Assembly: GCF_001677475.2 (NCBI RefSeq)
Contig: NZ_CP012498.1
DNA: 64,000 bases
Origin: Escherichia coli
GTDB lineage: Bacteria > Pseudomonadota > Gammaproteobacteria > Enterobacterales > Enterobacteriaceae
Direction: 5' to 3' (one strand)
Made by a program: the position numbers. Of this stretch, positions 3,001-6,000 are shown in pieces (within the stretch, counting starts at the first letter, position 1; each line of letters opens with the position of its first letter).

Positions 3001-6000
3001 TGTTACAGGCTCTGGTTAATGAACCACGGCAGCCTGACGGCTGCAAATTGAAAACCGCCCTGTTCTGAACTGCACCCCAAAAGTTGGACACTCAACGAAG
3101 TAAGGTGCAGTTTTTTATGAGTAAATATTCTCTCAGCTTTAAGCTTGAGGTTGTGCAGCACTATCTTTCCGGCATGGAAGGGCAGAAAGCGACTGCAAAG
3201 CGTTTTGGTATCGATCACAGTGCCGTTCGTAAGTGGACTGCTGCCTGGAAGCTTCATGGCGAAGCCGGACTTACCACCCGGCATTTCGCCTATTCTCCCG
3301 TCTTTAAAGAGTCCGTTATCCTGCATATGCGTGAGCACCGGTTGTCTGTTCGCGAAGTCTGTGCAAAATTCACTATTCCGGCTTTCTCCACGGTCCTTCT
3401 GTGGGAACGCCTGTATGATGAAGGGGGATTAGAAGCCCTCACTGACAGCCGACGCGGGAGAAAAACGATGCCAGAACGCCCTGAAAATAACCCGGCACCT
3501 TCTTTACAGGCTCCTCTTAACCATGATGAACGAGAGGAACTTGAACAACTGCGTGTTGAAGTGGCTTATCTAAAAAAGTTGCAGGCCTTGCTCAGGGAAA
3601 AAAGCACGTCAAAACGCGGGATAAAACGCAGATCGTGAATGAGTTAAGGCCGGACTTCCCTCTTGCGCGCTTGTTAAAAGCGGCAGGGCTGGCGAGAAGT
3701 ACGTTCTACTGGCAACTGGCGAGCGGTAAAAAACCAGACAAATATGCCGATGATAAGCGGCAGATTTTAACGCTGTTCCATAAACATAAAGGACGGTATG
3801 GATACAGGCGAATCACGCTGGCTATCCGCCGGGAAGGAAGCTTACTGAACCATAAAAAGGTTCAGAGGTTAATGAAGGCGTTAGATTTAACCTGCTGTAT
3901 CAGAAGGAAGAAATACAACTCTTACAGAGGCCGGTATGGGAAAGTGGCGGGTAATGTGCTGAACCGGCAGTTCAGTGCGGATAAGCCCAACCAGAAGTGG
4001 GTAACAGATGTCACGGAATTTAAAATCAGCGGAGAAAAACTGTATCTGTCCCCCGTTCTGGATCTGTATAACGGAGAAATAGTTGCGTATCAGATGGCGT
4101 CCCGTCCTCTTCTGTCGATGGTGGATGACATGCTGTTGAAGGCTGTATCTGTACTGGGTAAAGACGAATACCCGCTGCTCCACTCAGATCAGGGCTGGCA
4201 ATATCAGATGGCGCATTATCAGAACCGGCTTAAGGAGGCTGGTCTGAAACAGAGCATGTCAAGGAAGGGGAACTGTCATGACAATGCGGTGATGGAAAGC
4301 TTCTTCGGCACGCTGAAATCTGAGTGTTTTTACCTGATGGAACACAAGAATATCAGCGAGTTGCGCATGGCTATCGATAATTACATCCACTATTACAACC
4401 ATGAAAGAATAAAACAGAAACTGAAAGGCCTGAGTCCGGTAGAGTACCGAACCCAGGCCCTGATAGCCGCTTAATATAAACCGTCCAACATTATGGGGTC
4501 AGTTCAGTTCGTCCTGTTGTTGCCGCACGCCCCGCAGAATATGTATGCTCTGAGGACCTGTTTTATTAAGGACTCATCCCCTTATGTTGACCCGCAAAAG
4601 TATCGATACAGTTCTGTTCTCTGTTGGTGCTGAGAAGTTCTCACAATGTGAATGGGACTGGATGAAGATGCTCAAACCCATGGCCCCACCACCTGCGATG
4701 GTCGCGGCCTCCATCCTGGAGCACCGTGGTGATACAGCAGCCCTTACCCTACTACAAGATACCGGGGGTTAATCCGTCCTCATGTTGTCCGGTTTTACTC
4801 CCCGTCCGCTGAAACGCCTGTTCAGTGAGTTAGCTGGCCTGGATGTAATCACTCGTTCAATTCAATTCTCTTAATGTGGGAAAATTTCCGAATTCCAAGC
4901 GGCCCCCTCAGTACACGCTCGTAAGAGCCCCTGACGGCCCGCTAACGCGGAGATACGCCCCCGATTGAGGCCGGGACCACTCCGACCGCGCACAGATGCT
5001 CTGTCATGGCTGAAAGCGGTTATGGCTTAGCAGGATGGGGATGGGTAAGGTGAAATCTGTCAATCAGTACCAGCTTAAGCCGGGCTTCGGAGGTTTGGCA
5101 ATGTGCCATATGAAACAGTTGAGTGCCGCCTTCCATGCCGCTGACGCAGCATCCTGGTGACGATATCTGAATCGCTATATACTGTGTATATACACGGTAA
5201 TGACGAGGTGATAAATGGCACAGGTTAATATGAGTTTAAGAATTGACGCTGAACTGAAGGATGCTTTTATGGCCGCTGCAAAAAGCATGGATCGTAATGG
5301 CTCTCAGTTAATCCGGGATTTTATGCGCCAGACCGTTGAACGGCAGCATAATACCTGGTTCCGTGACCAGGTTGAGGCAGGTCGTCAGCAACTCGAACTC
5401 GGTGATGTGCTTCCCCATGATATGGTCGAATCCTCCGCTACTGCATGGCGGGATGAAATGAGCAGGAAGGTTGCCGGTAAATGATGGATATATTCTGGAC
5501 CATGCTGGCCAGCCAGGACAGGAAGCACATTCGTGAGTACATTGCGGAGCAGAACCTGATGTCCGCCATTGAACTGGACGAACGGATTGGTTATTCAGCC
5601 AGCAATCTGGCCGGGCAGCCGTATAAAGGCCGCAACGGTCGTGTGGAAGGTACCCGGGAACTGGTTATTCACCCGCATTTTGTTCTGGTTTATGAGGTCG
5701 ATAGCCAGTGGGGAAAAGTGTATATCCTGCGCGTATTGCATACCGCACAGAAGTGGCCATAGAGGGGCTGTCCGGATATAAAAACGTCTGACGGAGATGC
5801 AATAACCATGAATAATGATGATCTGGCTACCAAACGTGCGCAGACTATTGCTGAAGATCGCCGGATTTTTGTTTGCGAGGTTTAGCTGAACGGACCGTAT
5901 AACTAACTGAAAGACAATGACATTGTCTGTTTTTATAACGGTAATCTCAGGCCATGACAAGCCGCAGCCGTCAGGCTGCCTACTCGATTTCTTTTCTGAT

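Follow-up and report, generated by a model that had tools for sequence, protein, structure and literature searches.

Three 38-bp Tn3-type repeats on an Escherichia coli plasmid: probable broken ends of TIME286, a miniature element without transposase

Background

What are three 38-bp sequences of the Tn3 type doing, each by itself, in a stretch of plasmid DNA from Escherichia coli? The stretch in question (64,000 nucleotides of contig NZ_CP012498.1, assembly GCF_001677475.2; hereafter the window) had been interpreted from its sequence alone as carrying remnants of one or more Tn3-family transposons, or of mobilisable cassettes bounded by repeats, with an open frame beside the second repeat in the position expected for the 3' end of a transposase gene. 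We argue here that the three sequences, called c1, c2 and c3 below, are very probably the surviving broken termini of copies of a transposase-less Tn3-type element of 286 bp. It is a non-autonomous Tn3-derived inverted-repeat miniature element (TIME), to which we give the name TIME286.

Results

The three repeats are the following:

4870..4907, minus strand: c1, right-type 38-bp terminal repeat, 35/38 positions shared with its right-hand counterpart in intact TIME286
41406..41443, minus strand: c2, right-type 38-bp terminal repeat, of a copy in which element positions 247-286 alone survive
49240..49277, plus strand: c3, left-type 38-bp Tn3-family terminal repeat, GGGAGCCGCTTGGAATTCGGAAAATAAACCACGTTAAG, 35/38 positions shared with its left-hand counterpart in intact TIME286

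A search with the degenerate pattern GGGGNCGCNTGGAATTCGGAAANTNNNCCACRNNAAG (at most one mismatch) finds exactly these three sites in the window and none in 100 dinucleotide-preserving shuffles, so the sequence-only reading had counted and placed them correctly. It had also called them near-identical, which is fair for c1 and c2 (34/38) but not for c3 (32/38 with c1, 30/38 with c2), the latter being the other, left, end type of the same element. Each is 38 bp long and has the layout of Tn3-family repeats (about 38 bp, GGGG at the outer and (T)TAAG at the inner end): c1 runs GGGGG...ATTAAG, c2 GGGGG...GCCAAG, with one change in TAAG, and c3 GGGAG...GTTAAG, with one change in GGGG. The outer GGGG ends fall at 4907, 41443 and 49240, respectively, and this polarity places the interior of the element to the left of c1 and c2 and to the right of c3. 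The first two are direct repeats, and c2 and c3 turn their outer ends towards each other with their interiors pointing apart.

This arrangement bears directly on the proposal that two of the copies still bound a composite cassette (of the TIME-COMP type) carrying the genes between them. Composites bounded by miniature Tn3-type elements are documented (PMC13367494), and on a circular replicon c3 (left, plus) and c1 (right, minus) would be correctly oriented, from 49240 round to 4907. No inward-facing pair of repeats encloses a segment within the window, however; the outer flanks (TCAGT for c1, TTTAT for c2, TTCTA for c3) contain no 5-bp target duplication that would pair any two copies, and the wrap-around unit would hold the maintenance backbone of the plasmid. 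We thus regard such a cassette as very improbable, and this part of the earlier interpretation finds no support.

The element to which the three repeats do correspond came from a repeat-pattern scan of fetched loci, in which a plasmid of E. fergusonii was found to carry an intact, correctly oriented pair spanning 286 bp, with a c3-type repeat on the left, a c1/c2-type repeat on the right and no coding capacity. Its architecture (two 38-bp terminal repeats around about 210 bp) fits the definition of TIMEs, i.e. 50-500 bp, Tn3-type repeats at both ends and no transposase (PMC13367494, PMC4133298). When the window was compared with this element by blastn, and by nhmmer with a profile of 13 full-length family members (from loci with intact copies of 284-289 bp), computation assigned all three repeats to the family:

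49240..49354, plus strand: left half of TIME286, positions 1-115 (blastn 92.7% over positions 6-115, i.e. 49245-49354; nhmmer E 1.2e-30)
4820..4907, plus strand: right end of TIME286, positions 199-286 (blastn 94.3%; nhmmer E 8.8e-21)
41404-41443: right tip of TIME286, positions 247-286 (blastn 92.5%; nhmmer E 2.2e-8)

The family is a common one. Matches to TIME286, in pieces or whole, occur in 4571 of 72,556 plasmid records (PLSDB), that is in about 6% of those searched, and in 736 records at least 80% of its length is present. Salmonella, Klebsiella, Erwinia, Xenorhabdus, Cedecea and Citrobacter have full-length members that are more distant (67-75% identity) but of similar size (285-289 bp).

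The attribution of the repeats to the Tn3 family, which the earlier interpretation had already made, is confirmed by autonomous relatives. The repeat-pattern scan of one genome per bacterial species gave 75 loci, almost all in Enterobacterales together with Vibrio and Shewanella, many of which have a long open reading frame (ORF) with the repeat right at its 3' end. In Vibrio furnissii this ORF encodes a transposase (TnpA) of 994 amino acids (1202 bits on NF033527, for a cut-off of 500), divergent from the gene of a 194-amino-acid serine recombinase, and the stop codon of tnpA is inside the repeat. The repeat of this Vibrio locus (L040) is identical to c1-c3 at 30-32 of 38 positions, and 5-bp duplications (ATTCC, TAGAT and TAAAT) surround complete transposons of the same kind in Pantoea, Shewanella and Symbiopectobacterium. 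The same TnpA (at least 95% identity) is encoded in at least 316 plasmid records, those of E. coli included, so that a helper exists in the gene pool to which these plasmids belong. Such a transposase is missing from the window, as had been noted from its sequence: tblastn with the TnpA and TnpR proteins of the family gave no match at E<1e-5, the same query picking up Tn3-family TnpAs that are only 28-30% identical at other loci. A copy of the autonomous transposon on an E. coli plasmid (L094) was unusable as a reference, its repeat being shortened to 17 nucleotides, and no annotated transposase was shown at the matches to the 38-mer in Shewanella, Erwinia and a plasmid of Shiga toxin-producing E. 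coli (STEC). In Photorhabdus cinerea many draft contigs (L019-L030) start and end in the same type of 38-bp repeat, which suggests that a high-copy element of this repeat family has been collapsed in the assembly.

The open frame beside c2 needs a different explanation from the one first given. Two insertion sequences (IS) have to be distinguished there:

41269..41407, plus strand: 3' end of an IS256-family (IS1414-like) IS, with the transposase C-terminus and its own terminal repeat
39853..41268, plus strand: IS3-family IS of 1416 bp that cuts the IS1414-like element (two ORFs; NF033516, 311 bits)

The frame exists (41271-41372, reading QSASQKWKMSLKDWCMAMSRLIIEFGDRLDAHF up to its stop codon, or ...AMSRLIIEFGDRLDAHF in short form) and the IS3-family cut at 41268 was rightly recognised, since the 1416-bp element ends there. 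The frame is not a TnpA 3' end, however. Over the C-terminal 33 residues of an IS256-family transposase its product is 26/33 identical (E 9e-18), the reference protein scoring 421 bits on NF033543, and it does not align with Tn3-family TnpA, so that this candidate was rejected. At the DNA level, blastn finds matches at 81-91% identity under genes annotated as IS256/IS1414-family transposases, and the stretch is 86.9% identical to an IS256-family element in another locus (L001). The frame ends 33 bp from the inner end of c2, and the supposition that tnpA should stop some 30 bp before the repeat finds no support either: in the autonomous relatives it stops inside the repeat.

One could then ask whether the 38-mers are simply the terminal repeats of this IS1414-like element, the sequence of which reaches the inner end of c2 (its terminal repeat ends at about 41403-41407 and abuts c2 or overlaps it by 2-4 bp); a second IS256-family element, in another plasmid, likewise lies against a Tn3-type repeat. 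We consider this practically excluded. The terminal repeats that IS1414 possesses itself (GAGCCTGTACATAG..., GAGCCTGTACATAGATTTGTGTAATTGCC and partner), read together with its 8-bp duplication from an intact copy, are unrelated to the 38-mer, and these intact ends refute the proposal; the IS in L001 interrupts the Tn3-type repeat and shows an 8-bp duplication (ATGTGCAA); and c1, c3 and thousands of plasmid copies have no IS256 sequence.

Some further observations concern the same region. In L001 (1300-1345, 2625-2670) 4-12 bp separate the point of insertion from the inner end of the repeat, which is of the MITESen1 type; in the window (41398-41410), as in L004, c2 has an IS1414-like end against its inner end. 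Two different IS256-family elements are thus found at the inner ends of two different Tn3-type repeats, perhaps through a preference for such targets, perhaps by coincidence. Other IS1414-like fragments of the window are located at 2918-3024 and 29847-30246. The left end at 29847 might have belonged with the right end at c2, in which case miniature-element sequence should lie to its left; the local alignment did no better than shuffles, and this pairing was dropped. The outer flank of c2 is kept in other plasmids, there in the opposite orientation relative to a c3-type copy. The 1416-bp IS3-family element at 39853-41268 has a 100% identical copy in inverted orientation at 21757-23172, and recombination between the two could invert the 16.7 kb that separate them.

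The interior of TIME286 (about 210 bp), aligned with the tnpA-tnpR intergenic region of the Vibrio locus, gives a Smith-Waterman score of 58, to be compared with 21.2 +/- 3.2 (maximum 36) for shuffles, and is thus homologous to the res region of the parent transposon, making it a putative res. Motifs resembling half-sites, GT[AC]CG[AG][AT]A, are conserved at fixed positions in the family (about 102, 142, 164 and 182), and the first pair makes up an imperfect palindrome, TGTCCGAAATCG-TA-CAATTCTGTACA, the putative site I. Its left arm, TGTCCGAAATCG, is at 49340-49351 in the window, and by alignment the c3 fragment stops exactly at GTAC (49351-49354), the centre of this palindrome. The left arm recurs in pColV-PU1, where the palindrome is nearly perfect and two further sites and tnpR come after it. 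At GTAC, the left module of c3 is found joined to four right-hand sequences: the rest of TIME286, a true res with tnpR, the plasmid backbone (as in the window), and the outer part of a gamma-delta-type repeat. Reciprocally, the backbone is joined at GTAC to three left-hand sequences: the left half of the element, its right half in inverted orientation and, in a plasmid without the element, unrelated DNA.

The backbone sequence considered as the partner of site I is:

TTAACGTGTACGTTTATGG: backbone to the right of c3

We also considered this backbone as a diverged right half of TIME286 and gave the idea up, the profile alignment ending about 7 nucleotides past GTAC; at most it may contain a half-site. 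Resolvase-mediated recombination would predict repeated exchange at the presumed crossover point, as is seen here, and we infer that the c3 breakpoint was made by recombination of the resolvase type at site I rather than by a short-homology deletion.

Several points weigh against this account of the c3 breakpoint or against the derivation of the three repeats from TIME286. The GTAC junctions have 4-12 nucleotides of similarity with the inner part of gamma-delta-type repeats, and the partners resemble one another over up to about 12 nucleotides around CGTAC, so that a short-homology deletion could produce these junctions without any resolvase. In pColV-PU1 a complete res and tnpR adjoin the same left module as in c3 (repeat, 77 bp and left arm of site I), hence c3 could descend from a resolvase-bearing element and not from the 286-bp form. 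Because c2 consists of a repeat only, it is not assignable to a miniature rather than a full-length parent. A 5-bp duplication is found for one of the 12 intact miniature copies (TAAAT, in Xenorhabdus), that is for 0/4 of the E. coli/E. fergusonii type and 1/8 of the diverged ones, and with duplications so rare the direct evidence that the miniature element itself transposes is thin. Finally, the functions of res and of the repeats are predicted from sequence comparison.

Two of these points, the pColV-PU1 module and the shortness of c2, also favour the original idea of one or more full-length Tn3-family transposons as the source of the repeats, the copy at 41406 retaining the 3' end of tnpA; so does the fact that repeats of this type do bound autonomous Tn3-family transposons. 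We nevertheless find this unlikely. The frame that was to be the tnpA end belongs to the IS256 family; in the autonomous elements tnpA ends inside the repeat; no remnant of TnpA or TnpR is present anywhere in the window; and the 50 bp inside c1 are 94% identical to the miniature element, from which the ends of autonomous elements differ at this place. The earlier interpretation was therefore right about Tn3-family termini, but what they match is the 286-bp miniature element, and a full-length origin is not demonstrable. On balance, we think that c1, c2 and c3 are most probably broken ends of TIME286 copies.

The surroundings of c1 are as follows:

4508..4823, plus strand: 5' fragment of an IS91-family element (small ORF 4584-4772 and the first 14 transposase codons from 4782)
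3066..4507, plus strand: second IS3-family insertion, with ends TGAACTGCACCCC...GGGGTCAGTTCA and a flanking duplication (G)TTC

Beside c1, the IS91-family fragment takes the place of the interior of the miniature element: c1 keeps its repeat and 50 bp of interior, fused over a shared GTTCA to the 5' end of the IS91-family element. We had taken this for an insertion of the IS91-family element at a GTTC target, which was revised to a truncation or fusion, the piece being the 5' end of the element and not an IS end. The second IS3-family insertion is situated just downstream of the remnant IS1414-like left end (2918-3024). Further left, window positions 1-2889 contain a gentisate/3-hydroxybenzoate catabolic cluster (the end of gtdA, a member of the fumarylacetoacetate hydrolase family, maiA and a 3-hydroxybenzoate 6-monooxygenase), directly followed by this left end; related plasmids carry at the same place a complete IS1414 with the EAST1 toxin gene astA.

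Immediately outside c1 begins the repeated "structured" element, as had been observed beforehand (homology begins at 4907-4912, exactly at the outer edge of c1). It is present in several copies (4908-5179, 10427-10673, 36797-37039, 38131-38189), and in an IncF plasmid of Salmonella (L095, 691-977) it is located a few hundred bp downstream of the IncFII repA. Two of the window copies follow rep-like genes, and the one at c1 is without its rep gene; the element is probably origin-associated.

In c3 the left repeat and 77 bp are fused to backbone, with a conserved hypothetical gene and the partition genes parM/stb downstream. In various plasmids Tn3-type ends gather in front of this hypothetical gene and parM (window 49355-49400; L096 2336-2500; L006 3860-3890; L012 6051-6140). 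Examples are MITESen1-type repeats, repeats of two families in tandem at a distance of 12 bp, and a mini element (tnpR-res-repeat) whose end corresponds to window position 49374.

The window contains further Tn3-type repeats that the earlier interpretation had not listed:

47122-47316: IS101 variant of 195 bp, identical at 184/209 positions, with a 14-bp deletion and no 5-bp duplication (ACAGA vs GATGA)
48286-48532, reverse: MITESen1 variant of 247 bp, identical at 219/256 positions, with no target duplication (TGGTA vs ATATA)
42705-42742: solo degenerate MITESen1-type repeat (GGGGGCTGTCTGAATATCGAAAATTATTGTACACCAGG), the inner flank of which matches that beside the same repeat type in L001

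A repeated rep-gene segment, of which copies are present at 10102-10234 and 36472-36604, stops exactly at the IS101 variant. In addition, Rfam models detect the small RNA isrC at 9433-9555 and, on the minus strand, two group II introns. One spans 53114-57873 (domains D1-D4 at 57725-57873, 3' domains at 53114-53190), the other 61337-63634 (D1-D4 at 63485-63634, 3' domains at 61337-61413).

Discussion

Is TIME286 something new? The kind of element is already known, from IS101, IMU, MITESen1, TIME1-4 and TIME244. The nearest in design are TIME244 and IMU, which are Tn21-subgroup-like (Gomi & Yano 2026, PMC13367494; Poirel et al. 2009): both are 244-288 bp long, have 38-bp GGGG...TAAG repeats with GAATTCGGAAA, lack a transposase and reside in plasmids of Enterobacteriaceae, as is the case here, and TIME244 also carries a putative res. 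The left repeats of IMU and TIME244 share 29/38 and 28/38 positions with c3. By comparison with TIME286, however, their repeats are 55-76% identical and their interiors unrelated (local alignment scores of 19-21, the level of shuffles), and the transposon cognate to TIME286 belongs to a different Tn3-family lineage, with divergent tnpA and tnpR. IS101 (209 bp, derived from gamma-delta) likewise consists of two Tn3-family repeats around a res, in this case functional, and is mobilised and resolved by its parent transposon in trans; its repeats are of another subgroup (16-19/38 with c1-c3) and its res sequence is another one. The interior of TIME286 shows no similarity to those of TIME244, IMU, IS101 or MITESen1, the sequences compared being taken from Table S2 of PMC13367494 and from fetched loci.

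The 286-bp family is absent from the elements listed by Gomi and Yano (PMC13367494), and we found nothing relevant to its repeat strings, to a 286-bp MITE or to IS1414 together with Tn3 in the searchable literature (outside ISfinder, TnCentral and subscription journals). Nearly all the database matches examined have no feature annotated under TIME286. The frequency of TIME286 (736 near-complete and 4571 fragment records in PLSDB) appears to equal or exceed that of the named elements (109/11,572 RefSeq genomes for TIME244 and 7/11,572 for IMU), the denominators being different.

Recombination at res site I in elements of the Tn21/Tn501/Tn1721 type generates solo terminal repeats and hybrid transposons. 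The c3 module resembles these hybrids in that the left part is constant and the right partner switches exactly at the site I crossover; it differs from them in that two of the partners, the backbone and the gamma-delta-type repeat, are not recognisable res sites, so that the role of a resolvase stays putative.

How could such an element have come to leave these traces? For an intact miniature element, a cognate TnpA acting in trans binds both repeats, the element is copied to a new site via a cointegrate, and a resolvase acting on res separates the replicons (PMC13367494). TIME286 would accordingly move, by replicative transposition, only when an autonomous transposon supplies the cognate TnpA, and its internal res would let the cognate serine resolvase resolve the cointegrates and would also allow modules to be swapped at the crossover point. 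In the window no copy is whole: c3 breaks off at the centre of the putative res site I and continues into the backbone upstream of parM/stb; c1 runs into a truncated IS91-family element; and c2 has, against its inner end, an IS256-family (IS1414-like) element that was itself later cut by the IS3-family element. Since the window contains neither transposase nor resolvase, neither a matching duplication nor an inward-facing pair, the three copies are capable of no such movement. As single truncated ends that lack a helper they are most readily understood as dead relics, scars at the places where insertions, IS hits and recombination broke the plasmid and joined it again. It is possible that a cognate TnpA supplied in trans still binds them, which could confer transposition immunity or give rise to one-ended events.

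Conclusion

For the window itself the consequences are mostly a matter of housekeeping: the repeats mark breakpoints of a heavily rearranged plasmid, and the annotation of a Tn3 transposase tail is wrong. More generally, recognising TIME286 would improve the annotation of IncF and related plasmids and would explain breakpoints that look arbitrary. The element is a candidate vehicle for moving genes when its cognate transposon is present, and plasmid segments have repeatedly been exchanged at its likely resolution site. We would venture, as a tentative proposal that may well turn out otherwise, that TIME286 is a miniature Tn3-type element with a res, not described before and unusually prevalent in enterobacterial plasmids, especially those of the IncF type, and that its site I recombines with true res and with look-alikes inside gamma-delta/IS101-type repeats. 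Its main role might then be that of a portable hot spot of recombination, by which plasmid backbones are reshuffled and half-elements such as c3 are left behind, and the scattered single repeats might in addition make their plasmids immune to the cognate transposon.

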